From contig CAZYBR010000001.1 of assembly GCA_964645905.1 (NCBI GenBank), forward strand, positions 1 to 58,430: a stretch of DNA of 58,430 nucleotides, in the 5' to 3' direction. Under the pieces are notes generated by a model. The model was not told the DNA's origin. It saw nothing but the letters and a program-made list of their open reading frames with translations, and ran no database searches. Each line of letters begins with the position of its first letter. Position 1 is the stretch's first letter. A program made the translations under genes and the position numbers. This DNA comes from an uncultured archaeon. GTDB taxonomy: Archaea > Aenigmatarchaeota > Aenigmatarchaeia > CG10238-14 > SCSR01. Below, in pieces: positions 20,909 to 37,620 of this stretch.

Positions 20909-22441
20909 CTATTTTACCACAGCCTCAAACGGAATACTGATGTCAGGTTTGACGGGATCATTCGATAAAATAAATATTTCGCCTTTGTAAGTTCTGGGTG
21001 GTGCCACCTCTATTGGAAATTCTGCCGTATATATAATTTCGCTCTGCGGATTGAGGAAAAAATGAGAATAATCTCCATCCATTATTTGCCAAGAGCTAAA
21101 ACCGAAAGCCTCCTGCCACCCCTCGTTTGATTTATGATACCACGGATGCAAAAACATATAACCTAGTAATTTTAATGGAGAATTCCCCAAATTTTTAATC
21201 TTTAGATCCATTTTTGGTTGAGTATTTGTAAAATATAGCTTGGTTGGTTCAATACTAATTATTGGGTCATTAGGTTGGTGTGTAGTTGGTCTTTCTATAT
21301 AACGCATTCTTAAAGTTAAATCGCCGAAGGCATTAGAGCCCCCTAAGGGGCTGATTTTTATTGCTTCGTATAACGGTTCCCCAATTGATAATAAGTAATA
21401 CATCGCTGGGTCTGGAATTCCTGTTCCAAAAATTACTACCGGAGCCGCAAAGACCACCAAACCTTCACCGTTAAATAAATAATTACCAGCGATATAATCT
21501 TCTGTTATAAATCTTCCGACAGAGCAAGAGACAAACACCCCTAAAAAGAAACTGACATCAGAAATATCATTCGGGGTGATATTTTTACCATGAAAAGTGG
21601 GGGTACCATGAGCATTTACAAATAAAAGTTCATATTTATGTGGCTTTTTTATTTCGTCTAAATACAGCTGATCTGAATTTTCTTTTCCTGCATCTATAAA
21701 GGTGATACTTTTTTCGTCATACATATTAAAAGCTTTTAAATTGTTTTTAATTCCCGATATGGTATTTCCTCGATATGGTTCAGCTTGTTCCCATATTACT
21801 GGTTCGTACAATAAAATTTTTTGATCATAAGAATATTGACCTGTTCTGTATTCATGATTTCTTTTAAAATAATCCTTTAATAAGGATAATGCGTTTTTTG
21901 TAGAAGAGTTTGGAGTTAATCTAGAAACCCAAAAGGGCGGAATTTGAGTATTCTGGCAATCTGGGTTTGAGTAATCAAAAGCGTCCCACTCATTTGAATA
22001 TTTACAAGCATCGTAAATGTCTTGATAAATATAATCGTATAATGGTAAATCATCTTTTTGATAATACCCAGCAGGGTGATAAAATTTCCCGCTTGGTATA
22101 TCACCGATTAATAGTACCCCATTTAATCGCTGATCATTATAGATTTGTGCGATATACGATTTGATTTCAGAAACACTAGTAGAGGAGGAAAATGTTTTTA
22201 TAATCGTTTGAAAACCAAATTCTTTTTTTACATCATTGCTATAAGTATTAAGTTCTTGAGTAAGCCCATCTCGCAGAGTATCTTCGACTATTAAAAGCAA
22301 GGTATCCTTTTTAATAGTTTGCTGTATATCAGGTACTTGTGTGGGATTTTCTTTAGGTTGAATTAGTATATATGTTATACCAGCACTTACAACAATAGCT
22401 ACGATTATCAGAAGTACAATAAGACTAGAAACACCTTTCAT
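20909..22441 (-). CDS. Membrane-anchored or secreted clan-CD cysteine peptidase-like protein (gingipain/C25-like)
   Basis: N-terminal TM helix. LLLIVEDTL...EIKSYI...VLLIGDIP layout, then a His-Gly / Cys dyad context (FVNAHGTP...VFVSCSVGRF). Confidence 0.5.
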   Translation of the reverse strand: MKGVSSLIVLLIIVAIVVSAGITYILIQPKENPTQVPDIQQTIKKDTLLLIVEDTLRDGLTQELNTYSNDVKKEFGFQTIIKTFSSSTSVSEIKSYIAQIYNDQRLNGVLLIGDIPSGKFYHPAGYYQKDDLPLYDYIYQDIYDACKYSNEWDAFDYSNPDCQNTQIPPFWVSRLTPNSSTKNALSLLKDYFKRNHEYRTGQYSYDQKILLYEPVIWEQAEPYRGNTISGIKNNLKAFNMYDEKSITFIDAGKENSDQLYLDEIKKPHKYELLFVNAHGTPTFHGKNITPNDISDVSFFLGVFVSCSVGRFITEDYIAGNYLFNGEGLVVFAAPVVIFGTGIPDPAMYYLLSIGEPLYEAIKISPLGGSNAFGDLTLRMRYIERPTTHQPNDPIISIEPTKLYFTNTQPKMDLKIKNLGNSPLKLLGYMFLHPWYHKSNEGWQEAFGFSSWQIMDGDYSHFFLNPQSEIIYTAEFPIEVAPPRTYKGEIFILSNDPVKPDISIPFEAVVK

Positions 22442-22480
22442 ATTAAAACTTTGTTAAGATACAAATAAAAAGTACTTTTT

Positions 22481-22535
22481 ACCAACCTTAATTGAGACAA
22501 TGTCCCCCCGCCAAGTTCTGTTAACTTAAGGTTGG
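22481..22535. repeat. Intergenic palindromic element with a C-run core (copy A)
   Basis: ACCAACCTTAATTGAGACAATGTCCCCCCGCCAAGTTCTGTTAACTTAAGGTTGG. The arms CCAACCTTAA/TTAAGGTTGG flank a CCCCCCGCCAAG core. Related copies lie at 24793-24836 and 33162-33185. Confidence 0.7.
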
Positions 22536-22572
22536 CGAAAACTAAAAAAATTAAATCCTGAAAAGCTCGGTT

Positions 22573-23240
22573 TCATCGTCTCCCATCTTCAATCTCAAAC
22601 ATACTTAAAATGGATTCTGTTGTTCTTTGAGCTTCTTGTGGATCAATTTCATCTGTGATTGCGACATCATAAGTAGGAGTTATTTCAGCATGACAATGCT
22701 CGTGTTCTAAATACCATAAAACATCATCATCGGTAACACTAAAAACTGGGATTTCATAAACAAACACTTTCGCTGAACCATCAAATCCTCTTGTTGTATT
22801 TGCAAAAAAGACACCTCCAGAATAAGGTCTGCCACTTCTAATTTCTCTGCGAAACCTTTCTAAAGTAAGTTGAACTTGTCTTTCCTTTTCGATTCGTTGT
22901 CTGATGAATTCTTCTCTTTCAGGGTATCTAATGAATTGTTCTTCCCAGAATTCTATAGTTTTTCTACCGTTTGGATCATAAACAACTTCGGTATGAGCAA
23001 AAGAAACTTTACCTATACTAAGTATTTTATCTAAATACGCTTGAACAACTTTTGGGTCAGAACTTCTTTTAGCATTTTTAGAGTTACCTCTGGTTCTCTA
23101 GTGAGATAATTCCAAAGATAGCTACCTATCCCACCGCTTACAGCTATACCCTCGACTACAAGTAAACTTTTCTTTAAAAAGTTCCTTCTTGTTATTGTTA
23201 GTTCTCTAGATGTTTTTCTTTGTCTTCTGCTTTTGGACAT
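22573..23240 (-). pseudogene. Twin-arginine-signal protein gene split by a frameshift (or sequencing indel)
   Basis: ORF 23240-23031 encodes MSKSRRQRKTSRELTITRRNFLKKSLLVVEGIAVSGG (Tat-like). A second frame is open from 23097 down to 22573 but has no ATG/GTG/TTG until 22767. The frames overlap at 23034-23097, a stretch containing A4-A5 runs. The downstream part carries HEHCH. Confidence 0.45.
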
Positions 23241-23311
23241 AGAAACAATAGAAGAATAATAACTTTATTAACTTTCTTGAATATCTGTCCAGTTTGTTCA
23301 AATATGTGAAA

Positions 23312-23500
23312 TTATTCTGGTGGGCGTGGTGGCTTCTCCTCTGTTACTATAGGAGGTGTAGTTGTTTCGGCTGGAGGTTGCGTTGTAGAAGTTGGTTGTT
23401 CTGATTGTGATAATTTTAAAACATTCCAAAGTACTAATGCACCACCTATAACAATCAGCAAAATTATCAATGCTATTATAATCGTTTTCATATTTTTCAC
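23312..23500 (-). CDS. Small membrane-anchored Pro/Thr-rich protein (62 aa)
   Basis: N-terminal TM helix (IIIALIILLIVIGGALVLW), then a QPTSTTQPPAETTTPPIV...PPRPPE tail. Overlaps the stop of the upstream gene by 4 nt. Confidence 0.45.
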   Translation of the reverse strand: MKNMKTIIIALIILLIVIGGALVLWNVLKLSQSEQPTSTTQPPAETTTPPIVTEEKPPRPPE

Positions 23501-24756
23501 CTATCAGCTAATTCACAATCATTTGTAACTTTTATGAAATAACCTCTAAATAATTTCAAATTGTTATTAAACGGTTTAGAGAATTTATTCTCATCCACAA
23601 TTTCACCCGTCCCCGGATTCATCGATAAAAATTGCCATGGACCTTTTTCTATTTCACAGGTCCCTTTTATATCATTGAAGTTTAGGAGATTAACGGTGGT
23701 ACCACCCTCGAATTTTTCTGTGTACCCAAGCGCAGTAATTGGAGAATTTATGAGATTCCAACCGGTTTTTAATCTTAAGCCCCTCAATGTAACTGATTTC
23801 GTTCCTGATATAAGAATATCACAATCATTACTAGATCTGACATTGTTTTTAGTCTGTACTTCTACCCAAAGTCCTTTTTGTGTTGGTATTTTGGTCCCTT
23901 CTTCAAGTTTTCCAATTTTCGCGTAATCTCCAATATTATTATTCCATGACCAGATTGTTGCCTTGTTACAAGTGCTCTCTAGAACTGTTCCGTATCCATC
24001 ACCATCTTCTATTGGAATAGAAAACAAATTCCATCCAGTACTAAATGTTATTTTTGATGCCTTTTCTACCAGAACATCAATTTTCTTGTTTGTACTATCT
24101 ACGTTTTTGACATTTACATATGATCCGTAAAATCCATTTACAGCATCACCCAATAGTTTATTATTGGTGTCATAAAGGCTGAAATCTGCCGTACCCCATC
24201 TATCGTTAATCTTATCGAAAACAAGGCGATAACCATTGCCTAAAGTTAATTGTTCTCCGATACTTAACGTTGAAATTACACCACCTTTATATGTAAGTTC
24301 CTTTACAACTTCTTCTATTTCTGTTGGTTGCTGCTGTATTGCACCGGGTAATAGTTCATCAATAGATTCAATTGTAATCTGGGCATTTTCGTATCTTGAT
24401 GCAGCTGCTGAAACTGGAGTACTTTCGCCAGAGACACCCAAAATAGATATCTTTAATTTCAGATGTGTGCTATTGCCAAATTTCTTTGGACCCTCCAATT
24501 TAGTAATCGACTCTGTATAAGTACTTGTTATATCTTTTCCACTGTCATCATAAATAATAAAACCAAGTGTTTCACCAGAAGGGGCATAAACAATTGATTT
24601 AATTTCTATTTTCCAATCATCACTAACAGTTACGGTGTCACCCAATTTAACTGTATAAGTTCCATCACCAGAATATTGAGCAGCTATAACAATTGGTATA
24701 ATAAATAAAAATGTAAGTATAATTACTAAACTTAATTTTTCGAGATGTCTATTCAT
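23497..24756 (-). CDS. Secreted or membrane-anchored hypothetical protein (419 aa)
   Basis: N-terminal hydrophobic signal/anchor (LSLVIILTFLFIIPIVIAA). Composition suggests a beta-rich protein. No catalytic motif seen. Confidence 0.55.
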   Translation of the reverse strand: MNRHLEKLSLVIILTFLFIIPIVIAAQYSGDGTYTVKLGDTVTVSDDWKIEIKSIVYAPSGETLGFIIYDDSGKDITSTYTESITKLEGPKKFGNSTHLKLKISILGVSGESTPVSAAASRYENAQITIESIDELLPGAIQQQPTEIEEVVKELTYKGGVISTLSIGEQLTLGNGYRLVFDKINDRWGTADFSLYDTNNKLLGDAVNGFYGSYVNVKNVDSTNKKIDVLVEKASKITFSTGWNLFSIPIEDGDGYGTVLESTCNKATIWSWNNNIGDYAKIGKLEEGTKIPTQKGLWVEVQTKNNVRSSNDCDILISGTKSVTLRGLRLKTGWNLINSPITALGYTEKFEGGTTVNLLNFNDIKGTCEIEKGPWQFLSMNPGTGEIVDENKFSKPFNNNLKLFRGYFIKVTNDCELADR

Positions 24757-24792
24757 AAAAATAATTAGTTTAGATATTAATAAAAAGATTAT

Positions 24793-24836
24793 ACCAACCT
24801 TAAGTTAACAGTGTCCCCCGCCAGGTTCTGGTAAGT
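24793..24836. repeat. Intergenic C-run element (copy B)
   Basis: ACCAACCTTAAGTTAACAGTGTCCCCCGCCAGGTTCTGGTAAGT. Its left arm is the reverse complement of the right arm of copy A. The core CCCCCGCCAGG is shared. Confidence 0.7.
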
Positions 24837-24936
24837 CTTTGACGGTTAGTTAGTGCACAAGTATATTTGTTAAGACTCGATTGGTAGATTTCTTTAAAAG
24901 ATAAGAATTTCAATGTGTTAAAATTCAATTGGTTAT
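24824..24936. repeat. Left arm of the ~113-bp inverted repeat bracketing the 24.9-33.1 kb island
   Basis: GGTTCTGGTAAGT (24824-24836), then 78 nt, then GTGTTAAAATTCAATTGGTTAT (24915-24936), directly followed by the ATG at 24937. It matches the right arm read on the minus strand. Confidence 0.8.
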
Positions 24937-25647
24937 ATGGAAACCTTAAGCCCCTGGATTAATGGACTGATAGACAGTCTTACTGCTACAAGACTTATTT
25001 TAAACACAAATATAGAAAGCAGGAATAGGTTAGCTTTAATTCTATTGGATAGCACATTAGAAGTTTCTTTTAAAAACTACTTAAGCTATGTAAAGGACAT
25101 TAAAAAATTACCAGATAATGTGCTTAAAAATAGAGAAGAACTGCACAAAATTGTTAAGCGCAATACAACCTTTGGAAAAGACATCTGGGACAGTATAGAT
25201 TATTTTTATGATAAAAGAAATGATTTGTATCATGAAGATGTTGGGAAGACTTTGCCAGATCTAAGTATATTAGATTTTTTCAACCTTGTGATATTTATCA
25301 TTGATCAATTATTCTCTATCAATTCACAAGCTTTGATTAAGAACCCTAATGAAGTTTTAGTTAAAATATCTACAAAGAAGATTGGTATAAACAAAACCAA
25401 ATCCAAAATAGAAGCTATAATTGTAGCTGTGGGGTATTCTAACAAAATTGCCTCGAGTTCGGAAATAAAAGACATCCTTAATAGACTAGGTTACAAACAG
25501 ATGCTTACGCCCAGTCAGATTAACACTTTAATGAAGAATAAATATTATAAACATTACTTTTATTACGATAGAAAGGAGAGTACATGGACTTTAAGTGACG
25601 TGGGACAAGATGAGTATTATAGAATGTTAGCTGAATATGGTGAATGA
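24937..25647 (+). CDS. HEPN-like (Rx4H) protein with a C-terminal Mrr_N-like winged-helix module
   Basis: All-helical N-terminal ~130 aa with YDKRNDLYHED (R94-N-x3-H99, the classic RNxxxH HEPN motif). C-terminus ...SSSEIKDILNRLGY...STWTLSDVGQDEY resembles a wH reader domain. Confidence 0.5.
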   Translation: METLSPWINGLIDSLTATRLILNTNIESRNRLALILLDSTLEVSFKNYLSYVKDIKKLPDNVLKNREELHKIVKRNTTFGKDIWDSIDYFYDKRNDLYHEDVGKTLPDLSILDFFNLVIFIIDQLFSINSQALIKNPNEVLVKISTKKIGINKTKSKIEAIIVAVGYSNKIASSSEIKDILNRLGYKQMLTPSQINTLMKNKYYKHYFYYDRKESTWTLSDVGQDEYYRMLAEYGE

Positions 25648-26241
25648 ATGACAGATGAAATAAAAAAGAAAGAAATGAACGTGATTGCCAAAATAGATAC
25701 TCCAAACTTTAAGCTTGAAATTAATACAGTAGTAGACAGAGCAGACTTAGATGATACTCTTTCTTTTATACTATCCACCTTTGAAAAGAATTACAAAAAA
25801 ATAGATAAGATGTACGGATCAACAATAATCCAACCGACTTTACAAAAAGAAACTAAGGTAGAATATCCGTTTAAAGAGTTAAGCGAACCTGTAATAAACA
25901 TCGCTAGAAGAATGGGGGTGAACCCAGAAAAACTGATTGGTAATAATTTATTTGGGTTCAAGAGTGATAAACCGCAAATTTTTGATCCTTCAAGATTCAA
26001 GAGTGCCAATACAGCTGTGCGTGCATTAGTATATCTTTTTGAGATAGGATTAGGAAAGCAATCAGTCCAAAAAGAAGAGTTAGGAGAAGCTTATGAAATT
26101 AGTAAAATAAAGGGTAGAAAAGTTTCTCAATTGCTGCAAGATCTTAGAAAAATAGGTCAATTGGAAAAAAATGAAATAACACTTACAGCAAAAGGAACAA
26201 GTGAAGCTGAAAATGAGTTAAAAGCTTTGTTATCACTTTAG
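25648..26241 (+). CDS. Hypothetical partner protein of the HEPN-like gene (197 aa), possible C-terminal wHTH
   Basis: ATG immediately follows the upstream stop (TGAATG). C-terminus ...KVSQLLQDLRKIGQLEKNEITLTAKG is wHTH-like. No other motif seen. Confidence 0.45.
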   Translation: MTDEIKKKEMNVIAKIDTPNFKLEINTVVDRADLDDTLSFILSTFEKNYKKIDKMYGSTIIQPTLQKETKVEYPFKELSEPVINIARRMGVNPEKLIGNNLFGFKSDKPQIFDPSRFKSANTAVRALVYLFEIGLGKQSVQKEELGEAYEISKIKGRKVSQLLQDLRKIGQLEKNEITLTAKGTSEAENELKALLSL

Positions 26242-27387
26242 ATGTCTTTCTATAATAAATTTATATTTTGAGTGGAATAATTTGTAAAATTCAACCCACT
26301 TCTCAGCCTTCTCTCTAAACTCAAAATCAGTTCTCATACCGAGTTCTCTTTTCGGGTCCTGAAACTCATTTCCTTGCTCGTCAAGTATTTTTACCTTGTA
26401 GATTACGTCTTTCTCAGGTTCTGGAGCAGTATGACCATTGCCCTGATTACCATCAAGTTTAGATTCCATAGCCATTTTTACCAGTTCCATCCATCTGTTA
26501 CCACCGTTCAAATGAATGTTAATTCTGGAAGCCTCTGCAGGAGTCATGCCATTAAGAGACAGATGAGGTCTGATGAAGTTGTAGTAGGTCATAAATCCAT
26601 TCAGTATATCGGACGTGGATTCGGGTTGGTCAAAACCTCTTGTAACTTTTATTCTATCTCTAACAGTCCCATTAAACCTTTCAACAGGATTATTGTTGAT
26701 ACTTCCTCGCAGTCCAGTAGACCATACATGCTTAGTTTGTGGGTGCCTCCAGAATACCTTTCTAATAGCCTTATCGTAAGCTTGCAAACCGTCAGTAATC
26801 ACAACTTTAGGTTTGTTAATCAGTTTAGACTTACTCTCTTTGAATATCGCAACTGCATCAGCTTGATAACGAGCCTTGGATAATTTACAGGCAGTAATGA
26901 ACTTAGTTTCCTTGTCGATGACATTCCATAACCAGTACCATTTGCCTTTCACAGTAACCATCATTTCATCGGCATGAAGAACACCAGAACTTTCTCCTTT
27001 CAGCTTATCAGTAAATTCCTTGAAGATCTTCGAATATTTCCTTATCCAAAATAAGATGGTTACATGGCTTACCTTTACTCCGTATATCTGCCTTAGATGA
27101 TCTTTGACTCCTCTCAATGACATATTCTTGAAGTAGAGGTCTAAGGCAACTGTTATGATTTCTCCTTTATGCTTCATCTTAGGAAAAGTAGTATTGTCTG
27201 AAAATATTTTCTTGCAGGACTTGCATTTGTAAATCTGAATATTACCGATCTTGTTCTTTCTGTTTCCATGTCTGATTACTTCACTCGCTTTACAGTACCT
27301 GCATTTTGTATCTTTACCCATAACGTCACCCATAACTCTATCAATAACTATACACTTACATATATTTAAAGTTATCGGTAACGCCAC
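26233..27387 (-). CDS. DDE transposase (IS6/IS1-like, integrase-core fold) with an N-terminal zinc finger and a ~75-aa C-terminal extension
   Basis: CRYC...CKSC zinc finger. DDE context HADEMMV..., VITDGLQAY..., NNNPVERFNGTVRDRIK. YNFIRPHLSLNGMTPAEA is typical of the integrase core. The true start may be an internal Met (MGKDTKCRYC). Confidence 0.7.
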   Translation of the reverse strand: MALPITLNICKCIVIDRVMGDVMGKDTKCRYCKASEVIRHGNRKNKIGNIQIYKCKSCKKIFSDNTTFPKMKHKGEIITVALDLYFKNMSLRGVKDHLRQIYGVKVSHVTILFWIRKYSKIFKEFTDKLKGESSGVLHADEMMVTVKGKWYWLWNVIDKETKFITACKLSKARYQADAVAIFKESKSKLINKPKVVITDGLQAYDKAIRKVFWRHPQTKHVWSTGLRGSINNNPVERFNGTVRDRIKVTRGFDQPESTSDILNGFMTYYNFIRPHLSLNGMTPAEASRINIHLNGGNRWMELVKMAMESKLDGNQGNGHTAPEPEKDVIYKVKILDEQGNEFQDPKRELGMRTDFEFREKAEKWVEFYKLFHSKYKFIIERHLK

Positions 27388-27432
27388 CGATAGATTTATA
27401 AGTACTCGATGATATTCTTATTTAGTGATATT

Positions 27433-27651
27433 ATGGAACTCGATAAAGAGGCACAAATTATACTAAAGTTAATTGAAGACTCTAAAGAACCTTTGGAAAC
27501 TAGGGAGGTAGAAGAGAAATTTAAAAATCTCTCAAGATCTAAGATTTTGTACAGATTAAATCAACTGAGAGCTGAGGGTATGATTAAAGGTAAATCTATT
27601 GGTGCAGGTAAAGGTAACTGGGTTTGGTGGAGTAAAGAATCGTTTAGGTAA
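27433..27651 (+). CDS. Small winged-helix protein (72 aa), first gene of the type III R-M operon
   Basis: MELDKEAQIILKLIEDSKEPLETREVEEKFKNLSRSKILYRLNQLRAEGMIKGK is wHTH-like. Its stop overlaps the next ATG (TAATG). The track start at 27409 is also possible. Confidence 0.5.
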   Translation: MELDKEAQIILKLIEDSKEPLETREVEEKFKNLSRSKILYRLNQLRAEGMIKGKSIGAGKGNWVWWSKESFR

Positions 27652-27887
27652 TGATTATGGCAGGACAGTATGAAACACTAAGTTGTCCATTTTGTGATAA
27701 AGGCAAGATAACTTGCTTGTATTTCCCTAGTGTTATTAGCGTTAAAAGAGAGAAGTCCGCTACCTTTGGTTCTAAAACATCAAGAAGTAAATCTTCTGAT
27801 ACATGGCTTGTCCAATCTGGGTGCAGCTTTTGTGGTAAATCACAAGAAGAAGTGGAGAAGGAACTAAAAAAGCGAGATATCATTTAA
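27651..27887 (+). CDS. Small zinc-ribbon protein (78 aa)
   Basis: CPFC...(41 aa)...CSFC four-Cys arrangement. Translationally coupled to the upstream wHTH gene. Ends 17 nt before mod. Confidence 0.5.
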   Translation: MIMAGQYETLSCPFCDKGKITCLYFPSVISVKREKSATFGSKTSRSKSSDTWLVQSGCSFCGKSQEEVEKELKKRDII

Positions 27888-27904
27888 CAAAAGTAGGCTA
27901 AATT

Positions 27905-29842
27905 ATGGATGACTTAAAACTGTTATGGAAAAATAAGAAAGAAGAAGTAGATAAGATTGTATTACCTTTTCAGAAAATAGAGACAGTAACTATATCTCGA
28001 ACGGGTAAAGACACACTGAATGTATTAAGAAATACCGATAATAGTTCTTGGAAAAACAAACTTATTTGGGGTGATAATAAGTATATTCTGGCTTCTTTGT
28101 TAAAAGACCCTTCTATTGCCGGAAATATAAAACTAATTTATATAGATCCGCCTTTCTTCACAGGTACGAACATGAATATTCCTATTAAAATAGGTGATAC
28201 TAGTGAAGTCACAAAAGAACCTTCTGCAATTGAAGAAGTTGCTTATAGAAATATGTGGAAAGGAAACAGTAGAGAAGAGCAAGCATCATCTTTTTTGCAA
28301 TACATGTATGAACGAATAAAATTAATGCACGATTTGCTTTCGGAAGATGGTTCGATGTATGTAAGATTCGATTATCATTATTCTCATTATATTAAAATAA
28401 TACTGGATGAAATTTTCGATTATGATAATTTTAGAAATGAAATAATTGTAAATAGGACCAGAAAAAACGTTATGGAATCGCAAACACAAAGAGTTTTTCC
28501 TACTGCTACTGATTCTTTATTTTTTTATTCTAAAAATAATTCAGCATTTTTAAATAAAGTTGTCAAAAAACTTGAGCAAAAACGAGAGGGTTTTTGGAGA
28601 CACATGGATGATTCGGCGGGACAAGGAAGTCCAAAAATATTTTTTGGTAAAAAACTATCACCACCAGTCGGCAAACACTTCAAATATTCTCAAGAAAAAA
28701 TTGACGAAATGATTAAAAATGGAAAAATCAGATTACATTGCAAAAACTGCGGCTATGAACATACAGAAGGCAATTGGAATAAATGCCCCTCATGTAAAAA
28801 GGATAACCCAAGACCAGAATATTGGGTATCTGAACGAGAACACGCTTTACTAGATACAAATTGGACAGATATACCTGGTTATTCATTTAGTACAGGATAT
28901 CCAACCGAAAATTCCGAACATTTATTGGAGAGAGTTATACTCGCTTCTTCTAATCCAAGTGATTTAGTTGCTGACTTTTTTGCAGGATCGGGGACTACAA
29001 ACATAGTTGCCGAAAAGTTGAATCGTAGATGGATAGCTTGCGATATAGGAAGATTTTCAATTCATACAATAAGAAAACGACTTCTTGAAATACCTACATG
29101 CAAACCATTTGAAGTTCTTAATATGGGTAAATATGAAAGAAAATATTGGGCAACTGAGACATTAGGAGAAGATTATAAAAAATATATTGATTTTATTGTA
29201 CAATTATATAACGCCAAACCATTGAATAATTTTGAATATATTCATGGGAAAAAAGGTAGTAAGGCTGTTCATGTCGGATTAGTAGATTCACCTGTTTCAA
29301 AAAAAGAAATATTTGACGCACTCGCTGAATGTAAAAAAGTGGGCTTCGACAGTCTTGATGTGCTTGGCTGGGAATGGGAAATGGGTTTGAATGATTCAAT
29401 AATAAAAGATGCTAAAGATTTATTTACTGTGAATCTAGCTCTTTGGGTTATACCTAGAGAAGTGATGGATAAAAGGGCTGTGGAAGCGGGTGATATAGAC
29501 TTTTATGAACTTGCTCATTTACAAGTGGATGTTTCGAAAGAAGCTAGAGGTGTGAAAATTAAACTTGAAGATTTCATAATTCCTAACCCTGAGCTTATTC
29601 CTGCAGAAGTTCAGAAAAAAATTAAAAAATGGAGCGACTATATAGATTATTGGGCAGTTGACTGGGAATTTAAAGATGTTTTTCATAACGAATGGCAGAC
29701 ATATAGAACCAAAGACTCCTCTAATTTAAAACTTGAGACACCTTCTCATGATTATCGAAAAGGTGAGTACCAAATACTGATTAAAGTTATTGATATTTTC
29801 GGCAATGATACAAGTACGATAAGACGAATTGTGATAAAATGA
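27905..29842 (+). CDS. mod: Type III R-M DNA methyltransferase (Mod), beta-class N6-adenine/N4-cytosine
   Basis: Motif IV IYIDPPF precedes motif I DFFAGSGTT (beta order). The variable region between them has a CKNC...CPSC zinc ribbon. ATGA overlap with res. Confidence 0.85.
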   Translation: MDDLKLLWKNKKEEVDKIVLPFQKIETVTISRTGKDTLNVLRNTDNSSWKNKLIWGDNKYILASLLKDPSIAGNIKLIYIDPPFFTGTNMNIPIKIGDTSEVTKEPSAIEEVAYRNMWKGNSREEQASSFLQYMYERIKLMHDLLSEDGSMYVRFDYHYSHYIKIILDEIFDYDNFRNEIIVNRTRKNVMESQTQRVFPTATDSLFFYSKNNSAFLNKVVKKLEQKREGFWRHMDDSAGQGSPKIFFGKKLSPPVGKHFKYSQEKIDEMIKNGKIRLHCKNCGYEHTEGNWNKCPSCKKDNPRPEYWVSEREHALLDTNWTDIPGYSFSTGYPTENSEHLLERVILASSNPSDLVADFFAGSGTTNIVAEKLNRRWIACDIGRFSIHTIRKRLLEIPTCKPFEVLNMGKYERKYWATETLGEDYKKYIDFIVQLYNAKPLNNFEYIHGKKGSKAVHVGLVDSPVSKKEIFDALAECKKVGFDSLDVLGWEWEMGLNDSIIKDAKDLFTVNLALWVIPREVMDKRAVEAGDIDFYELAHLQVDVSKEARGVKIKLEDFIIPNPELIPAEVQKKIKKWSDYIDYWAVDWEFKDVFHNEWQTYRTKDSSNLKLETPSHDYRKGEYQILIKVIDIFGNDTSTIRRIVIK

Positions 29843-32376
29843 TGGGACCATTCAATAAACCTGATAATAGAATAGAGACATTCTGCCCATTGGTGTTAAA
29901 GATACGAGAAGAAGTCGACAAGTGGAGAGACTCTGGTTATGATGGTGTGTCAGAAACTACAAAAATTCTTCTTAATTTTTGGTTTAACGAAGGTCACATG
30001 TCTAATGGGAAACTATTCAAATATTATTTCTGCCAAAGAGAGGCAATCGAAACATTGGTATTTTTATTTGAAGTAAAACAAATTAGAACTCTCAGAGATC
30101 TTGTAATCAACTATGATATTAGCAAAAAAATTGCTTATAATCCTCATGATGATTTATTCACGAAATTTTGTTTTAAAATGGCTACAGCTTCTGGTAAAAC
30201 AAAAGTTATGGCTTTAGCAATAGTGTGGTCTTTTTTAAACAATGTCATAGAACAAAATAAAGATTTTTCCAAAAGTTTTATTATTATTGCGCCTAATATA
30301 GCTGTTTATGAAAGATTGAGAACAGATTTTTCAGGCGGTGAAATATTCAGAAGTGACCCCCTAATACCAGAAGAGTTTCAAAATTATTGGGATGTCGATG
30401 TTGTTTTAGAAGATGAATTAACAAGTCGGTCGGCAAAAGGTAGAATATATCTTACAAATGTCCAAAAACTTTATGAACGCTCAAATGATACTGAGAGCCT
30501 GAACCCCGTAGAAGCAATAGTTGGAACTAAACCGAGAGAAAAGAACGCATATGAAACTATTTTTGATGATTTAATGAAACTTGATGATATTTCTATAATT
30601 AACGATGAGGCTCACCATGTTTGGGATCCTGAATCGAAATGGAGTGAATTTATATCAAAACTTTTCAAACGATTTAAAAAAGATGGAAAACTATTTGCTT
30701 TCCAGCTTGATTTTTCCGCTACGCCAAAGAAGCAGAATGGCGGACTTTTTGAATGGGTTATAGCAGATTATCCTCTTGCTGATGCTATAAGAAATGGAAT
30801 TGTAAAAAGACCTATTATTGGAGAAGTTGAAAATGCAAAAGAGACTCCATCGGAAAGAGCCGATATTGTTTACAGAGATTACATAGAAGCTGGAATAAGG
30901 AGGTGGAGGAGATACAGAGAAGTCATGATAAACGTAAAGAAGAATCCTATAATATTTTTCATGGCTACTAAAACGAAAGAAGCTGAAGATATAAGAGATT
31001 TTCTAGAAACAAAATCCGATTTCAAAGGTAAGGTTCTTTTGATTCATACGAATTTGAAAGGGGATATAAGTGAAAAGGAATGGACTAAACTTAAAGAAGA
31101 ATCAAGAAATCTAGATTCTGATAGCGACAAATATCGAGCTGTCGTAAGTGTTCTTATGCTTAGAGAAGGATGGGATGTTAAAAATGTAACTATTATAGTA
31201 GGTCTCAGACCGTATACTTCCAAAGCCAACATACTACCAGAACAAACGTTGGGAAGAGGATTGAGATTAATGTTTGGTCCTAAATCTGGGTTTGAAGAAA
31301 CTGTAGATGTTTTCGGTTCTAGTGCATTTATTGACTTTATCGATTCTGAGTTAAAGAAGGAAGGCGTTAGAATTCAGAGACTTAAAGAAAGGGAAATGCC
31401 AGATGTTACTAATATTTTCGTTGACCCAAGGAAAATGAAATTCAATGTAGAAATTCCCAATATAACTCCTAAGTATACAAGAATAAACAGATCATTTGAT
31501 GACATTAAGGTTGAGAATCTTCCCAAAGGTCCATTTGAATTAGATTTGAAATCGTACTCGATAAAGAAAATAGCTAAAGGAAGAGATGCCTTAACGAATA
31601 AAGAAGTTTGGAAAGATCAATGGAACCAAATTATACCTGAAAACTTTGAGTCTATAATAGGTTATTATTCGAATCGTATACTTAGAGAATGTAAAATACC
31701 ATCGCGAAACTATGAATTTATCCCGAAATTAAAGGAGTACATTTTAAAACGTTTATTTGGCAGAGAACTTACCGAAAAAGAAATCAGCAACAAACTTTTC
31801 TTAAGGCAGTTCATAGAATCAAGCATATACTCCTATTTAATGACGCTATTCCCGAGAGTTATAAACACTTTGACCATAACACCGCAAGAAGTTAAACTGA
31901 ATCAAGAACCTAAAATGGCGTCTCATGTAGAGCCATTTCTGACTAGGAAGGAAGTCTACAATTCAAAGAAATGCATATTGAATTTAGTACCTATTGATAA
32001 TGATTTGGAAGGTAGGTTCTGTATTTTTTTGGATTCGGCTAAAGATGTTAAAACATTTATTAAGAACGATGTGAATCTGAACTTCTATATAGAATACGTC
32101 AATGAGAAAAAAGGAATTTCGTATTATGTACCAGATTTTGTTATAGAAACTAACAATGAATTCTTTATTGTAGAAACTAAGGGTGTTGAAACGGAGGATG
32201 TGGAATTCAAGGATAAGAGAGCTACTGAATGGTGTGAAGATGCTTCAAAATTAACAGGTAAAAAATGGGAGTATATCAAAGTAAAACAAATAATTTTTGA
32301 CGAAAACCAGAACATAAAAACATTCAGTAAATTAGTGGAGTTGATAAAGGCATATCAACTAGCGACGAATTATTAA
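29839..32376 (+). CDS. res: Type III restriction enzyme Res subunit (SF2 helicase + PD-(D/E)xK nuclease)
   Basis: MATASGKTKV (Walker A), NDEAHH (DEAH box), LMLREGWDV, and a C-terminal nuclease motif YVPDFVIE...FFIVETKG. Confidence 0.85.
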   Translation: MMGPFNKPDNRIETFCPLVLKIREEVDKWRDSGYDGVSETTKILLNFWFNEGHMSNGKLFKYYFCQREAIETLVFLFEVKQIRTLRDLVINYDISKKIAYNPHDDLFTKFCFKMATASGKTKVMALAIVWSFLNNVIEQNKDFSKSFIIIAPNIAVYERLRTDFSGGEIFRSDPLIPEEFQNYWDVDVVLEDELTSRSAKGRIYLTNVQKLYERSNDTESLNPVEAIVGTKPREKNAYETIFDDLMKLDDISIINDEAHHVWDPESKWSEFISKLFKRFKKDGKLFAFQLDFSATPKKQNGGLFEWVIADYPLADAIRNGIVKRPIIGEVENAKETPSERADIVYRDYIEAGIRRWRRYREVMINVKKNPIIFFMATKTKEAEDIRDFLETKSDFKGKVLLIHTNLKGDISEKEWTKLKEESRNLDSDSDKYRAVVSVLMLREGWDVKNVTIIVGLRPYTSKANILPEQTLGRGLRLMFGPKSGFEETVDVFGSSAFIDFIDSELKKEGVRIQRLKEREMPDVTNIFVDPRKMKFNVEIPNITPKYTRINRSFDDIKVENLPKGPFELDLKSYSIKKIAKGRDALTNKEVWKDQWNQIIPENFESIIGYYSNRILRECKIPSRNYEFIPKLKEYILKRLFGRELTEKEISNKLFLRQFIESSIYSYLMTLFPRVINTLTITPQEVKLNQEPKMASHVEPFLTRKEVYNSKKCILNLVPIDNDLEGRFCIFLDSAKDVKTFIKNDVNLNFYIEYVNEKKGISYYVPDFVIETNNEFFIVETKGVETEDVEFKDKRATEWCEDASKLTGKKWEYIKVKQIIFDENQNIKTFSKLVELIKAYQLATNY

Positions 32377-32407
32377 TCGTTTTAAATAATATGTGAACTA
32401 ATGTCAA

Positions 32408-33064
32408 CTAATTCTCTTGTAGAATAGAAGGATACGATCTTTTAATTTCTGTAATTAATTTATTAATACCAGTCTCTATATCATCGGTGCGAATTTTAAT
32501 GCCTTGTTTTTGTTCTGCCAGACCAGTTATGTTAGTTTCGTCGAAAATAAGTGGAACTACTATTTTATCTTTAGCCATAGCATATCCAGTCTCTTGATTT
32601 GCCCAAGCCGATAAATTAAAATTATCTGTAATTAACGGGAGGAATAAATCACAAGAGTCCAAGTGTTTTTCTATTTCGTCTCTCCATTCAGATGATATCT
32701 CGACTTCTTCATGAGCTAAAAAAGATTTTATGTTGAATTTTCCTAGTTCTTCTTTAACTTTACCTGCAATATTTTTATCTTTAGTGTTATAACTCAAGAA
32801 TGCTTCTCTTGACATCTCGTCTAGTGTTATGATAGTCTCAGAGCCGTGTCTTTCAAGCTTTTCCACACGTCCAATTATAGGAGGGTTGAGTTTTTGAAGT
32901 GGTATAGTCATCATGGGTCTATCAAAGGAACCTACTTCTCCTGTTGATGAGTTTTCTATAGCAGGTGTTCTAATTGAGGTTTGACTGTAGAAATACGCCT
33001 CAGTAATCTTGATCATGTCACCTCTTCTTGCATTAAATGTGCCACTAATAGCTACAGTTATCAT
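32408..33064 (-). CDS. TIR-like domain protein with an uncharacterised ~90-aa N-terminal domain
   Basis: C-terminal half AFLSYNTKDKNIAGKVKEEL...FLAHEEV...SCDLFLPLITDNFNLSAWANQETGYA follows the TIR pattern (FxSYxxxD ... S.W...E). The track start at 33070 is TTG; I use the ATG at 33064. Confidence 0.55.
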   Translation of the reverse strand: MITVAISGTFNARRGDMIKITEAYFYSQTSIRTPAIENSSTGEVGSFDRPMMTIPLQKLNPPIIGRVEKLERHGSETIITLDEMSREAFLSYNTKDKNIAGKVKEELGKFNIKSFLAHEEVEISSEWRDEIEKHLDSCDLFLPLITDNFNLSAWANQETGYAMAKDKIVVPLIFDETNITGLAEQKQGIKIRTDDIETGINKLITEIKRSYPSILQEN

Positions 33065-33174
33065 AACCAATTGAAATTTAACACTAGATGTATTTATTTA
33101 ATTCATAACTAAGAAACAACCGAAACTTAACACAAAATTTCTTTATAAGCACCAATCAACAACTTACCAGAACC
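33063..33174. repeat. Right arm of the ~113-bp inverted repeat bracketing the island
   Basis: Read on the minus strand: GGTTCTGGTAAGT (rc of 33162-33174), then 77 nt, then GTGTTAAATTTCAATTGGTTAT (rc of 33063-33084). This is 21/22 identical to 24915-24936, and its last bases overlap the ATG at 33064. Confidence 0.8.
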
Positions 33175-33185
33175 CCCCCCGCCAG
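33162..33185. repeat. Intergenic C-run element (copy C)
   Basis: ACTTACCAGAACCCCCCCCGCCAG. A C8 run plus GCCAG, as in copies A and B. On the minus strand it reads CTGGCGGGGGGGG. Confidence 0.6.
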
Positions 33186-33257
33186 AAGCTTTATATACTT
33201 TTATGTTATAGTTAATACTAAATTTAGTATTCGTTGTAACATAAACAAGGTGTAAAA

Positions 33258-33599
33258 ATGGCAGAAAAAAAGGGGATCATATTCGCATTCTCCATGAAGA
33301 CCGAGAAGATCTCGCCTTCGGAGAAGACAGTATTTTTCAGGAAGCTTTACGGATGGAAGCAGGTGGTCTCGAATGAGAACAAGAAATACGAGTACGAAAG
33401 GCATGGCATCCTCGACGAGATGCCTCACGCCAAAGTCGACCAGTCGTCCTTCATCATCCCGGAGGACAATTTTGAGCAGATAATGAATTTTTTTGACGAG
33501 TGGCACAGCAAGGTCTTGCTAAAGACTTTCAAAGTGCTATTAGATAGAGAGACTGAAGACATGTTCGATGACTTTGAAGTATTGGAAGAGGATGAATAA
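33258..33599 (+). CDS. Hypothetical protein (113 aa) with an acidic C-terminal tail
   Basis: ORF track. Ends ...DDFEVLEEDE. Its stop overlaps the next ATG (TAATG). No motif assigned with confidence. Confidence 0.45.
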   Translation: MAEKKGIIFAFSMKTEKISPSEKTVFFRKLYGWKQVVSNENKKYEYERHGILDEMPHAKVDQSSFIIPEDNFEQIMNFFDEWHSKVLLKTFKVLLDRETEDMFDDFEVLEEDE

Positions 33600-33817
33600 T
33601 GGATATAAAAATAGTTTACTGCGTGCCGTGCGGGTATATCCAAAAAGCAGAATGGATGAAGAAGGAATTGGAAAAATCTATAAAGGATGCGAAAGTGAAA
33701 CTCGAGCCTGGAGACAAGGGCATCTTCGATGTTTATGCTGATAAGAACCTGCTCTTTTCCAAGCACAAAGAGGGAAGGTTCCCAGATTCTAAGGAAATAA
33801 TAAGACTGGTGAAATAA
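33599..33817 (+). CDS. Rdx-family (SelW/SelT/SelH-like) thioredoxin-fold protein with CxxC
   Basis: MDIKIVYCVPCGYIQKAEWMKKELEK...PGDKGIFDVYADKNLLFSKHKEGRFP matches the Rdx pattern (IxYCxxC/U ... G.FEV ... SK...g.FP). Confidence 0.65.
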   Translation: MDIKIVYCVPCGYIQKAEWMKKELEKSIKDAKVKLEPGDKGIFDVYADKNLLFSKHKEGRFPDSKEIIRLVK

Positions 33818-36800
33818 TGGCTGAACAAACAAACGAAGTCAGATTGAAAGTCGGAGAGCTCACCGCACGAGAGGAAGCAGGCAGGGGGATTGTCAGGATA
33901 GATTCTAATACGATGAGCAAGCTGCAAGTCAAGGAAGGCGATGTGATAGAAATCGAGGGGTCAAAGATCAGCGCCGCCATAGCTGTCCGCTCTTATCCTG
34001 CAGATGTAGGATTGAACATCATTAGAATGGACGGCATAACAAGAAGGAATGTCGGCAGCGGCGTGGGAGAATACGTGAAACTGAGAAAAGCAGAAGTCAA
34101 GGAAGCCAAGTCTGTCACATTGGCGCCGGCACAAAAAGGCATCATGATCCATATATCGCCGAATTTGATAAAACAAAACATTTTTATGCGCCCGATGGTC
34201 AAGGGTGACATAATCTCGCCGTCTCCTGTCGGAAGAAGAAGAAGTTCAGGCCTGTTCGAGGATTTCTTTGGAATGGACATAGAAGAATTTTTCCCGTCAT
34301 TCACTCCATTTTCAGGAGATATAAAATTCATTGTTGTCAATACGAGCCCTGCGGGTGTTGTAAAGATCGGCGAGATAACGGAATTGGAAATATTGCCGCA
34401 GCTGCCAGAATCGATGAAGCTCGAAGACAGGGCAGTCCCTACTGTGACATATGAAGACGTCGGCGGAATCAGGGAGATCATTCACAAAGTAAGGGAAATG
34501 ATCGAATTGCCATTGAGGCATCCGGAACTGTTCGAAAGACTGGGAATCGAGCCACCGAAAGGAGTCTTGTTGTACGGGCCGCCTGGGACTGGCAAGACAT
34601 TATTGGCGAAGGCTGTGGCGAACGAATCAGGCGCATATTTCATTTCTATCAGCGCTCCTGAAATTATGAGCAAGTGGTATGGCGAAAGCCTGCCTTATGA
34701 CGAGAAAATCTTGGTTTCAGAAAAGGGTATGGTTAAACGAAAACCCATAGGTGAAGTCGTGGAAAGCGGGAACAAAGATATACAGGTTCTTTCTTTTGAC
34801 GAGCAAGGCAAAATAAGATTTGCGAAAGTCACGGACTTGATTAAGCATAAGAACACAGGAAAATTGCTGGAGGTCGTGACAAAAAGCGGAAGAAAGATAA
34901 AAGTTACCGACTATCACAGCCTGTTCACTCTGGACGGTGGCAAAATAAAAAGCATCAGGACATCTGAATTAATTCCGAAGAAATCTTTCATCGCAGTACC
35001 GAGATTCATCCCTCAAGCGGGGACCAATCTGGAAGAGATAAATATTTTGGATTCGTTGAAAGAGAATGACCTAGGTTTGGTCACTAGAAACGTGCAAGGA
35101 TATGTAAAACGCGCCATTGAGAAAATCGGCGCGGACAGGGTTGCCGGAATTCTAAAATGCAATAAGAATTATATCTGGTTCATACTCAACAAGAACATTG
35201 GGATAAGAATTTCCAAATTCATGAAGCTTATGGAAGCTGGAAATGTTACAATCAATGATGATGTGCGAATTTACAGTAGAACAAAATCTTTGCCAGCAAA
35301 AATCAAGCTTACAGACGATTTCCTTACATTCCTAGGATTGTGGGTGGCGGAAGGGTCATACACTAAGAATGGCAATGTCAGGCTTACTGTCCATAGGAAA
35401 GAAGCCAGTGATGTCAAGGCCCTCTGCGAGAGGCTTTTTGGAAAAGTGGCTGAATATGAATATAAAGAAAACGCTACAGACATTTATATTTCGTCGACGG
35501 TTTTGTACAAAGTGATGAAGGATGTCCTGGGTTTGATGGGTGGCGCGAGAAACAAGCATGCACCTGATATTGTCTTCAATTTAAGCAAAGAGAAGGTTGC
35601 GGCTTTTCTTACAGGCTATCTGAGCGGCGATGGTTCCATCTACGCCAACCAGCACGGAGTCCCGCAGATAGAAGCGTCCACAGCCAGTGAAAAATTGGCC
35701 GATGATTTGATGCATCTTTTCCTCTATTTCGGCATCATTGCGAAAACATATGACAGGAAAAACGAAGACGCAAAGAGAGTAGTGCTCACAGGAGTGGACA
35801 ATCTCCTGAAATTCAAGCAGATAGGGTTCATCGACTGGAAAAAGAATTCCATGGTAACAGACTATCTTACGAATGTTGCATGGAAGAGAAGCGATCAAAT
35901 ACCTTCAGGCGGGCTTGACCCGATAATAAGCCACATTCCTCAAATCAAGCAATGGGCAAACTCTGAGACTATCGGAAGGGGCATTCTAGGGCAGGTGGCT
36001 GATATGGACACGGCAATCGAGTACGGGTTGGATGAGGATTTGATGCAGGATGCGATAAGATTGGTGTCAAATGACATTTATTGGGACAGAGTCGAGGAAA
36101 TAAAGGAGATTAATAACGAGAAATATGTCTATGATATATCCGTTTCTCCTAGTGAAAACTTTCTCGCTGGATTTGGCGGTATATTTGCACATAACAGCGA
36201 ACAGAATATAAAAAGGATTTTCGAAGAGGCTGAGAAAAACGCTCCTGCGATTATTTTCATTGATGAGATCGATGCAATCGCGCCGAAGAGAGAGGAAGTA
36301 AGCGGCGAAGTTGAAAGAAGAGTCGTGTCCACATTACTGACGCAGATGGACGGATTGAAGAAAAGAGGGAAAGTAATTGTCATTGCTGCGACCAACAGAC
36401 CGAACAGTCTGGATTCTGCAATCAGAAGAGCAGGAAGGTTCGATAGGGAGATTGAATTTCCTGTGCCGGACAGGGAGGGAAGACTGGATATTTTCAAGAT
36501 CCACACGAGGAACATGCCGATGGCAAAAGACGTTGATTTGAACCACCTTTCTGAAATCACTTATGGTTTTGTTGGCTCTGACATATGGGCAGTAGGAAAA
36601 GAGGCAGCCATGTCCGCATTGAGAAGGGTCCTTCCAGAAATAAAATGGAAAGAAGATGAGGAGCTGCCGAAAGAAATCATAGAGAAGCTCATTGTCACTA
36701 AAGACGATTTCGAGGATGCACTGCGCATAGTCGAGCCTTCGGCGATGAGGGAAGTCATGGTCGAGATACCGAATGTTAAATGGGAGGACATAGGCGGACT

Positions 36801-37620
36801 CGATGAAGTGAAAGAACAATTGCAAGAAATGGTAGAATGGCCTCTGAAGAGTCCTGATTCGTTCGAAAGATTGGGCATATCGCCACCGAGGGGAATATTA
36901 TTGTACGGGCCGCCTGGGACTGGCAAGACATTATTGGCGAAGGCTGTGGCGAACGAGGCCGGAGCGAATTTCATTTCTATAAAAGGCCCAGAAATGTTTT
37001 CCAAATGGGTCGGCGAATCAGAAAAAGCGATAAGGGACGTGTTCAGAAGAGCGAGGCAAGTCGCGCCTGCTATAATTTTTCTGGACGAGATCGATGCGAT
37101 CGCGCCGAGAAGAGGAATGTACAGCGGAAGCGGCGTAACAGAAACTGTTGTCGCGCAATTATTGTCAGAGATTTCCGGATTGGAGGAATTGAAAGGTGTG
37201 GTCGTGATGGCTGCGACGAACCGTCCCGACATTGTCGATTCTGCATTATTGCGGCCTGGAAGGTTTGACAGGATGGTCTTGGTCCCTGCGCCGGATATTA
37301 AATCACGATTGGAAATTTTCAAGGTGCATACTAAAAAGATGCCGCTTACAAAGGACGTTGACCTGAAAGAATTGGCAAGGAAGACTGAAGGGTTCTCTGG
37401 GGCAGACATAGAGTCATTGTGCAGGGAAGCTGGAATGGAATCCTTGAGGGAAGACAAGAAGAGCAAGGAAGTCAAGATGAAGCATTTCGATAAAATGCTT
37501 GCGGGTATCACACCTAGTGTGACAAGAGACGTGGTAAACTATTATGAAAAATTCTCGGAAAGGAAAAAAAAGACGGACAGGGGAGAAGAAAAGGACGCCA
37601 CACCTAGATACATCGGATAG
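33817..37620 (+). CDS. cdc48: Cdc48/VCP-type double AAA+ ATPase, intein-containing precursor (1267 aa; 764 aa after splicing)
   Basis: Cdc48 N-domain ([21 protein letters not shown]...), two GPPGTGKT Walker A sites, two DEID Walker B sites. The D1 sequence ...MSKWYGE | intein | [12 protein letters not shown]... is restored by removing residues 291-793. Confidence 0.9.
34687..36195 (+). mobile_element. Intein (503 aa) with a LAGLIDADG homing-endonuclease domain, inserted in Cdc48 D1
   Basis: Starts [10 protein letters not shown] (Ser1). Block [11 protein letters not shown] (TxxH). LAGLIDADG motifs [10 protein letters not shown] and [11 protein letters not shown]. Ends ...GIFAHN, followed by Ser+1. 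Excision recreates the canonical YGESEQ. Confidence 0.85.

Follow-up and report, generated by a model that had tools for sequence, protein, structure and literature searches.

What are the two inverted arms that enclose the defence-like island of contig CAZYBR010000001.1? This contig (assembly GCA_964645905.1), from an uncultured archaeon of the Aenigmatarchaeota, was analysed over its whole length of 58,430 nucleotides (nt), referred to here as the window. Between arms of about 113 bp it carries a DDE transposase gene together with genes for restriction-modification (RM), TIR-domain and HEPN-like proteins. The original prediction took the arms either as the ends of a mobile or invertible cassette or as a duplicated regulatory region controlling the two end genes. 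Our results indicate that the island is very probably a unit transposon moved by its own IS6/IS1-like DDE transposase, with the arms as its ends, a target chosen by reference to a promoter, and stacking of successive elements at that target.

We compared the two intergenic regions by local alignment. The results showed that both arms are present as predicted and align collinearly from the tip to the start codon. With strict scoring the alignment reached 37 (dinucleotide shuffles, 19.9 ± 2.9) and with loose scoring 35 (shuffles, 14.2 ± 2.3), above all 1,000 shuffles (z about 6–9). Overall identity between the arms is about 60–70%. The left, L-type arm occupies 24824–24936 on the plus strand and the right, R-type arm 33063–33175 on the minus strand; the right arm had been placed correctly except for its outer end, which reaches 33175 and not 33174. 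An outer 13-mer, GGTTCTGGTAAGT, is identical in both arms (24824–24836 and, as the reverse complement, 33162–33174). The inner 22-mer (24915–24936 and the reverse complement at 33063–33084) agrees at 21 of 22 positions and has just these two copies in the window at up to 3 mismatches (0.02 expected). The middle of the arms, earlier described as weaker in similarity, is indeed similar and also holds a second copy of the motif TGTTAAnnTTCrATTG (24868–24883 and 33117–33132). Each arm consists of a tip and two subterminal copies of this motif, 47–49 nt apart, the inner 22-mer being the third site. On the left, the tip site lies at 24824–24849 (GGTTCTGGTAAGTCTTTGACGGTTAG), repeat 2 at 24868–24883 and repeat 3 at 24916–24931; on the right, the corresponding sites are 33175–33150, 33132–33117 and 33083–33068. 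The tips read GGTTCTG, that is, the GGnnnTG type, and by eye the tip resembles the subterminal motif. Terminal repeats of the IS6 family are short (about 14–20 bp), near-perfect and begin with GG; here the tip GGTTCTGGTAAGT is perfect and starts with GG, but conservation extends over about 113 bp, including the two subterminal repeats, and the L and R ends differ in type. As had been claimed, the left arm adjoins the ATG at 24937 and the right arm overlaps the ATG at 33064. The 113-bp arms contain no open reading frame (ORF). An Rfam scan of the arms gave no match, and a structured RNA or riboswitch-like leader was rejected because the arms fold no better than shuffles (z = +1.47 and +0.28); such unstable folding (about +1.5 and +0.3) is neutral for the transposon model.

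Immediately outside the arms, a 9-bp direct repeat, CCCCCGCCA, was found at 24815–24823 and 33176–33184 (both plus strand), and the earlier statement that no target duplication flanks the arms was wrong. Arms and flanking repeats together define the island as an element of 8,352 bp at 24824–33175. Through the exact 113-aa protein encoded in the right flank, we found two short sister contigs of the same project in public assemblies, L016 (SRR12113383) and L017 (SRR12113431). L016 joins 24824 straight to 33176 and represents the empty site, joining about 24.8 kb to about 33.2 kb, for which a search had been suggested. It reads CAACCTTAAGTTAACAGTGT-CCCCCGCCAG-AAGCTTTATATAC: its first 30 nt equal 24795–24824 at 100% and share a single copy of CCCCCGCCAG, and 1.4 kb of it is 99.8% identical to window positions 33176–34599. 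The left-hand copy of CCCCCGCCA is likewise present once in this contig. L017 contains the right junction in its filled form (100% identical). A further contig, L024 (SRR12113424), matches E1, the left-hand neighbour of the island described below, at 100%, and its end falls exactly on 24824, the final position that the two alleles share. These sister contigs show presence and absence alleles, never a flipped order, and the island is still polymorphic in the population.

Related contigs were reached through the closest transposase homologues (84–91% identity), and the suggested search for further arm copies found them around other cargo in L004, L003, L018 and L023. The 5.8-kb element of L004 consists of a Res-Mod-Zn ribbon-winged helix-turn-helix (wHTH) series and the transposase only; it has arm copies at both ends, and a 9-bp duplication, AAGCGACAG, abuts its GGTTYTG tips. 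L003 carries an MmeI-like type IIG enzyme, a split transposase and three ORFs of no assigned function, and its left tip is degenerate. The element of L018 (duplication CCCCGCACC) holds a 2-hydroxyacid dehydrogenase gene, a transposase remnant, an RHH and AAA_14 pair and a 307-aa ORF; it lies upstream of a 111-aa gene, at a site orthologous to that of the window and in the opposite orientation. L023, at the orthologous site upstream of a 114-aa gene, carries the transposase, two small ORFs, Mod, Res, GmrSD_N and HEPN_RiboL-PSP. Nine arms could be aligned and fall into the L and R types, each element having one of each, and the transposase gene points to the L-type arm in every case. The left arm of the island is homologous to the arms L018R, L004b and L003R, and the right arm to L023R, L018L, L004a and L003L. 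Arm copies bracket different cargo elsewhere, and the arms are therefore transposon ends. The empty site, the target duplication and these like arms around other cargo all bear out the mobile variant of the original cassette reading.

The pair of an RHH_1 gene and an AAA_14 gene of about 550 aa recurs at 1419–3331 of L001, beside a 91%-identical transposase, and at 6885–8827 of L018, inside the element; it looks like a recurrent cargo module.

To describe target choice across the wider family, we collected 79 loci with transposase relatives from GTDB species genomes and searched them automatically for inverted repeats flanked by 9-bp direct repeats. This gave 40 credible elements of 2.0–9.7 kb, in about half of which the tips were set purely by the limit of inverted-repeat complementarity. 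Most of them belong to Woese-, Pace-, Nano- and Aenigmarchaeota, and the tips of some differ considerably, for example TACATTGTAACG. The 9-bp duplications are CCCCCGCCA in the window, AAGCGACAG in L004, CCCCGCACC in L018 and CAAAAAAGC in L026, and 36 further elements have one too. In the flanks of the seven close elements, every 9-bp duplication is followed by 5 nt and then by a consensus archaeal TATA box. The window flank reads CCCCCGCCA, GAAGC, TTTATATA, and that of L026, upstream of a TFIIB gene, reads CAAAAAAGC, AAAGA, TTTAAATA. We scored the pattern TTTAWATA on either strand with up to 1 mismatch, using offsets 30–189 of the same flanks as background. Of 80 flanks, 31 have a TATA box that starts exactly 5 nt past the duplication, with 16 exact matches, against a background of 0.5% and 0.05% per position, respectively. 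At offsets 4–6 a TATA box is present on at least one flank in 34 of the 40 elements, and both element orientations were seen. In the whole window TTTAWATA occurs 10 times, about 1–3 × 10⁻⁴ per position. The target logo reads R-W-A-A-n-m-TTTAWAWA: the duplicated 9-mer is nearly free of information, and A stands at +2 and +3 in 27–29 of 30 sites. This is the shape of the transcription factor B recognition element (BRE) followed by the TATA box of archaeal promoters. Counted from the first T of the TATA box, the outward ORF starts after 29–34 nt in the main class, a spacing as expected for leaderless mRNAs, and after 63–68 nt in a second class (68 in the window); a few target sites precede tRNA-like genes instead of an ORF. 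From the TATA offset and the spacing of the outward start codons, the target sites are therefore real promoters. Insertion takes place directly upstream, and BRE and TATA are preserved.

In the window, the target landmark (33185–33197, plus strand) comprises the BRE-like spacer GAAGC and the TATA box TTTATATA at 33190–33197. This promoter serves a conserved operon of a 113-aa gene, Rdx and CDC48, reading away from the island. The 113-aa gene (33258–33599, plus strand) is the first downstream host gene; it is conserved in Aenigmarchaeota and provided the anchor for orthologous sites. The orthologous promoter received independent insertions in the window and in L018, the two lying in opposite orientations, and it was hit again in L023 and L029. 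A target consisting of the 9-mer itself or of a resident element tip was rejected: L018 has no resident tip, unrelated 9-mers are used elsewhere and the logo is uninformative over the 9-mer. TATA/BRE-referenced transposition and IS6-type cargo transposons in DPANN archaea are both undescribed in the literature that can be searched in full text, a scope outside which most subscription journals and ISfinder/TnPedia lie.

Several observations were made beside these targets. A 46-bp palindrome (TTTATGTTATAGTTAATACTAAA / TTTAGTATTCGTTGTAACATAAA) at 33200–33245 separates the targeted TATA box from the 113-aa gene; also conserved in L018 and L023, it is a candidate operator of the 113aa-Rdx-CDC48 operon. 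L071 and L047 have a TATA box at ruler distance on both flanks, formed by divergent promoters 19 bp apart, and in L047 one flank is moreover an inverted repeat of the other, which may hint at a symmetric target complex. The archaeal-type transposase was also found on contigs binned as bacteria (L091, 9878–13742, and L031; Staskawiczbacteria and Ignavibacteriae), which suggests mis-binning or cross-domain transfer. The L091 element lies 14 bp from a TTTAAATA box, with an ORF 29 nt further. In L025 (1–338) and L026 (9496–10011), a PolB-exonuclease-like ORF (DNA_pol_B_exo2 / RNase_H_2) overlaps the start of the transposase gene and could be a conserved accessory gene of that more distant subclade.

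The left flank of the island shows that the same site received more than one element. E1, a 2.3-kb element without a transposase (22514–24814), ends in inverted repeats of 21–22 bp at 22514–22535 and 24794–24814, which share a perfect 18-mer, CTGTTAACTTAAGGTTGG, with 2 perfect copies where 0.06 are expected. The only ORFs within it, all on the minus strand, are for small secreted or membrane proteins (419, 62, 69 and 64 aa), and the element may be mobilised in trans. A further copy of CCCCCGCCA lies at 22505–22513 (plus strand), with one extra C before it, and beyond it a solo terminal inverted repeat (tip-inward ACATTGTCTCAATTAAGGTTGG; 22482–22503, minus strand) forms the left half of a 54-bp palindrome, junction A, which folds into a hairpin ("hairpin A", z = −2.4). 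The order of units is solo repeat, CCCCCGCCA, E1, CCCCCGCCA, island, CCCCCGCCA, TATA box. The solo repeat is probably a remnant of the oldest element, E0, whose partner (left) end was not found in the window. G+C content is 32–35% in the island and the whole tract and 38–47% in the flanks. The low-GC tract also reaches left of E1 (20909–22503), where it includes a 510-aa ORF without a family match as well as the solo repeat, and this part may be left over from an older element.

The duplication recurs between tandem elements in the window, L029 and L085. L029, at the same CDC48-operon promoter, has tandem junctions at 3435–3464 and 6145–6174, and L085 has the 9-mer GAAATAAGG three times, at 919, 1990 and 3992. 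In L018 and L026 the promoter-distal flank resembles a degraded tip.

The boundaries, the duplication, the empty site, the arm homology with its L/R asymmetry, the variable cargo, the stacking and the promoter-referenced target rule with its TATA offset statistics were directly demonstrated, and they lead us to propose the following mechanism. The transposase would most likely bind three sites per arm, the tip and two subterminal repeats of about 16–20 nt. Strand transfer with a 9-bp stagger would then give the 9-bp duplication. The target itself is the promoter and not a specific 9-mer: the staggered cut would be set such that the duplication stops 5 bp short of the TATA box, directly before the BRE-like AA, leaving the host promoter intact and reading away from the element. 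Because the ruler would be set from the TATA box, later elements would stack at the same promoter: each would enter at the promoter-proximal copy of the earlier duplication, push older elements outward and add another copy of the same 9-mer. The age order in the window fits this prediction, with the solo inverted repeat followed by the transposase-less E1 and then by the intact, polymorphic island, which is the youngest member of the series. The ruler could be read directly from BRE/TATA DNA by the Zn-finger/HTH transposase or through docking on TBP/TFB. We regard as a tentative idea, with the odds somewhat against it, that the transpososome is recruited by the archaeal pre-initiation complex, docking on TBP/TFB and integrating at a fixed 14 bp upstream of the TATA box.

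Several points weigh against the transposon model as a whole or against parts of it. The role of the three arm repeats as putative transposase-binding sites, though most likely, is drawn from conservation and from analogy with the ends of Tn7 and Mu. The close subfamily comprises five loci only, and pattern scans gave no further exact arm type. A scan for the double subterminal motif returned 0 matches in public genome contigs and, in metagenome contigs, only CRISPR or tandem-repeat false positives (L005–L015). Six of the 40 elements lack a clear TATA box at ruler distance. Some of the 40 sites are orthologous and hence not independent, with at least 35 duplications differing in sequence. The right junction is one C longer than a symmetric tip plus 9-bp duplication (C8 at 33173–33180 against C5 in the empty site), which could reflect homopolymer slippage or an additional tip base. 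Finally, transposition itself was unobserved, and the polymorphism could in principle result from precise deletion between the 9-bp repeats and not from recent insertion.

We weighed three other explanations against this transposon model. The first takes the arms primarily as a duplicated promoter or leader through which a single regulator, such as the wHTH protein of the island, would control both the HEPN-like and the TIR gene, with mobility as an incidental feature; we consider it improbable. The arms do run into start codons in the window and at the left ends of L018 and L003, but those of L004 adjoin the 3' ends of the Res and transposase genes, and start-codon contact is therefore not a constant feature of the arms. 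AT-rich, TATA-like strings lie between sites 1 and 2 (GTATATTTG in the L-type and CTTATAAAG in the R-type), but neither fits the genome consensus TTTAWATA, and their distance of 76–85 nt from the ATG fits neither host promoter class. Conservation of the wHTH gene in the core speaks for this reading; the arm type, however, follows the orientation of the transposase and not the neighbouring gene, and the arm repeats occur nowhere else in the 58-kb contig. A candidate secondary promoter inside the arms is possible.

The second explanation, an integrative element or integron-like cassette with CCCCCGCCA as the recombinase core site and the junction palindromes (hairpin A and junction B) as att or attC sites, appears very unlikely. 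Integrons are recognised by an IntI tyrosine recombinase or by attC sites of R''-L''...L'-R' structure, with cassette boundaries in GTTRRRY and a variable palindrome centre. Three direct copies of CCCCCGCCA between the units and a tandem, cassette-like order do resemble an integron array, but domain searches of the island and the window found no integrase. At every other family site the "core" varies in sequence while its length is always 9 bp, as in a staggered-cut duplication, and the target logo is flat across these nine positions. The junction palindromes are simply two abutting transposon tips around the 9-bp duplication; attC/att junctions, a candidate prompted by the 54-bp palindrome of junction A, were dropped, on sequence comparison and not with an attC covariance model, because each half is a transposon tip and the 9-mer varies between sites. 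ARAGORN and Rfam detected no tRNA at the target site, and CCCCCGCCA was rejected as a tRNA 3'-end att site. Least credible is the invertible variant of the original prediction, a cassette flipped by site-specific recombination between the arms: inverted repeats do bracket inward-facing genes, but domain searches of the ORFs found no serine or tyrosine recombinase or integrase in or beside the island, the arms are only about 60–70% identical, the sister contigs are filled or empty without inverted order, and the flanking direct repeat is a mark of insertion, not inversion.

To place the transposon among known families, we scored its transposase with family models. The transposase (366 aa, with an N-terminal Zn finger; 26233–27333, minus strand) reached 150.3 bits with the NCBIfam model NF033587 transpos_IS6 (cut-off 125) and 67 bits (cut-off 27; 2e-18) with Pfam DDE_Tnp_IS240. 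It stayed below the cut-off for NF033558 transpos_IS1 (70.2 against 100) and for the IS1/IS1595 Zn-binding domain NF050000 (23.6 against 28). Like the IS6/IS26 group (IS26, IS257, archaeal ISPfu/ISH), the island has a single DDE transposase, GGnnnTG tips and a tendency to accumulate beside resident copies. IS6 insertion sequences (IS) measure about 0.8 kb (0.7–0.9 kb, with a few members reaching 1.7 kb), have inverted repeats of 14 bp and duplicate 8 bp of target, and a single member, ISDsp3, has a passenger gene (PMC7986276). Their transposases have 213–254 aa, archaeal inverted repeats reach about 34 bp (PMC7986276, PMC6807381), and archaeal IS6 transposases have 215–237 aa; GGnnnTG ends are common to IS1 and IS6 (PMC6807381). 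The island instead spans 8.35 kb (2–9.7 kb in the family), with three-site asymmetric arms of about 113 bp, seven cargo genes, a 9-bp and not an 8-bp duplication, and a 366-aa transposase with a Zn finger. By its transposase it belongs with IS6, and by size and duplication it does not. It is also a unit transposon and not a pseudo-compound one flanked by two IS copies; the latter was rejected, the window showing a single transposase gene and 113-bp arms without an ORF. A small IS with its own inverted repeats around the transposase gene was not found either, the only nearby GGTTCTG-type tips being the island arms. IS6/IS26 members move through cointegrates, by a replicative or a targeted conservative route; for the island, the filled and empty alleles show the end states of movement. 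In contrast to IS26, stacking of the island would arise from promoter-referenced targeting and not from conservative recombination with a resident copy.

With IS1 the island shares GGnnnTG ends, a duplication within the range of 8–9 bp (both IS1 features as cited in PMC6807381) and an N-terminal Zn finger followed by the DDE domain; the ISfinder tables also give these ends and 8–9-bp duplications for IS1. It differs in its model score below the cut-off, the lack of a programmed-frameshift ORFAB and its large cargo, and we know of no description of promoter-referenced targeting for IS1. Tn7-like elements, including those with defence cargo at attTn7, resemble the island in functionally asymmetric ends with several subterminal transposase-binding repeats, a Tn7 feature, and in a landmark-defined safe site, variable defence-rich cargo and tandem accumulation. 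Unlike them, the island has no TnsA/B/C/D homologues in domain searches of its ORFs and a single IS6-like transposase, makes a 9-bp and not a 5-bp duplication, and occurs in both orientations at a landmark that is a generic BRE/TATA promoter with many sites and not one conserved gene end. The Ty3 (RNA polymerase (Pol) III start sites via TFIIIB/TBP), Ty1 and Tf1 (Pol II promoters) elements insert at a fixed short distance from the initiation machinery, which spares coding sequence in a compact genome, as here, and archaeal TBP/TFB are homologous to TBP/TFIIB/Brf. They are, however, long terminal repeat (LTR) retrotransposons with retroviral-type integrases, and for the island TBP/TFB tethering is a hypothesis beside which direct DNA reading of BRE/TATA is equally possible. 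Taken together, the element is an IS6/IS1-superfamily transposase driving a multi-gene defence transposon with complex ends.

The island carries seven non-transposase genes, and the calls for the DDE transposase, wHTH, Zn ribbon, type III Mod/Res and TIR genes are backed by Pfam, PADLOC and NCBIfam. Cargo lies on both sides of a conserved core of transposase, wHTH, Zn ribbon and RM genes. The transposase gene has its own consensus TATA box, TTTAAATA, at 27370–27363, 37 nt upstream of its ATG. The wHTH gene (27409–27651) and the Zn-ribbon gene (27651–27887) head the RM operon on the plus strand, and this pair is also linked to the transposase in L004, L023 and partly L003. The Mod gene (27905–29842, plus strand; PADLOC MTase_III 1.1e-96, Pfam N6_N4_Mtase) and the Res gene (29839–32376, plus strand; PADLOC REase_III 9.5e-31, Pfam ResIII) are adjacent, as in a type III RM system, and their ORFs overlap at 29839–29842. 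At the right end, a solo TIR-domain gene (32408–33064, minus strand; Pfam TIR_2 1.3e-16) gave weak ThsB/ThcB4 matches, all below the cut-off (46 bits against 220). A Thoeris identity was rejected, ThsB being far below its cut-off and no ThsA-like gene being present in the island. At the left end, the HEPN-like gene (24937–25647, plus strand) encodes an N-terminal HEPN-like domain (R94-x4-H99) and a C-terminal winged helix. The R-x4-H motif is invariant in 11 homologues. In the PDB, the closest matches of the confident AlphaFold model (predicted local distance difference test score, pLDDT, 88) are HEPN domains, followed by the winged helix. These two results give the HEPN-like call indirect support, the fold matches being weak (E ≥ 0.3), and Pfam, PADLOC and NCBIfam gave no match. 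A 197-aa gene (25648–26241, plus strand) is start-stop coupled to the HEPN-like gene, and Pfam, PADLOC and NCBIfam searches gave no family for it. Exact-protein look-ups of Mod and the HEPN-like protein found no record.

Elsewhere in the window, the CDC48/VCP AAA ATPase gene (33817–37620) is split by an intein with a LAGLIDADG homing-endonuclease domain, as in the related locus L025, and an archaeal topoisomerase I gene lies at 17154–19217. These two genes, together with the conservation of the 113-aa protein in genomes assigned to Aenigmarchaeota, support placing the contig in this group of DPANN archaea. Rfam identified three tRNA genes of 86–126 nt missed by ARAGORN, at 9831–9916, 10517–10609 and 47074–47199 (all minus strand). 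They probably contain introns, which are frequent in archaeal tRNA genes.

These findings indicate that the defence-like island owes its origin to a mobile element and not to assembly in place, and that it is still polymorphic in a groundwater Aenigmarchaeota population. A branch of the IS6/IS1 superfamily has turned into a true cargo transposon with Tn7-like, multi-site asymmetric ends, and its family shuttles RM, TIR, HEPN, GmrSD and AAA_14 modules among DPANN archaea, lineages reported to be poor in RM and CRISPR systems (PMC12988326). The promoter-referenced rule is new for a prokaryotic DNA transposon within the searchable literature and parallels the retroelements tethered to Pol II and Pol III promoters. 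It offers a simple mechanism for the ordered stacking of accessory DNA, the youngest nearest the promoter, and as a by-product flags bona fide archaeal promoters in uncultured genomes. If the tethering is true, the family would be the archaeal DNA-transposon counterpart of Ty3/TFIIIB and would build self-assembling defence islands at strong promoters in the tiny, gene-dense genomes of DPANN archaea.

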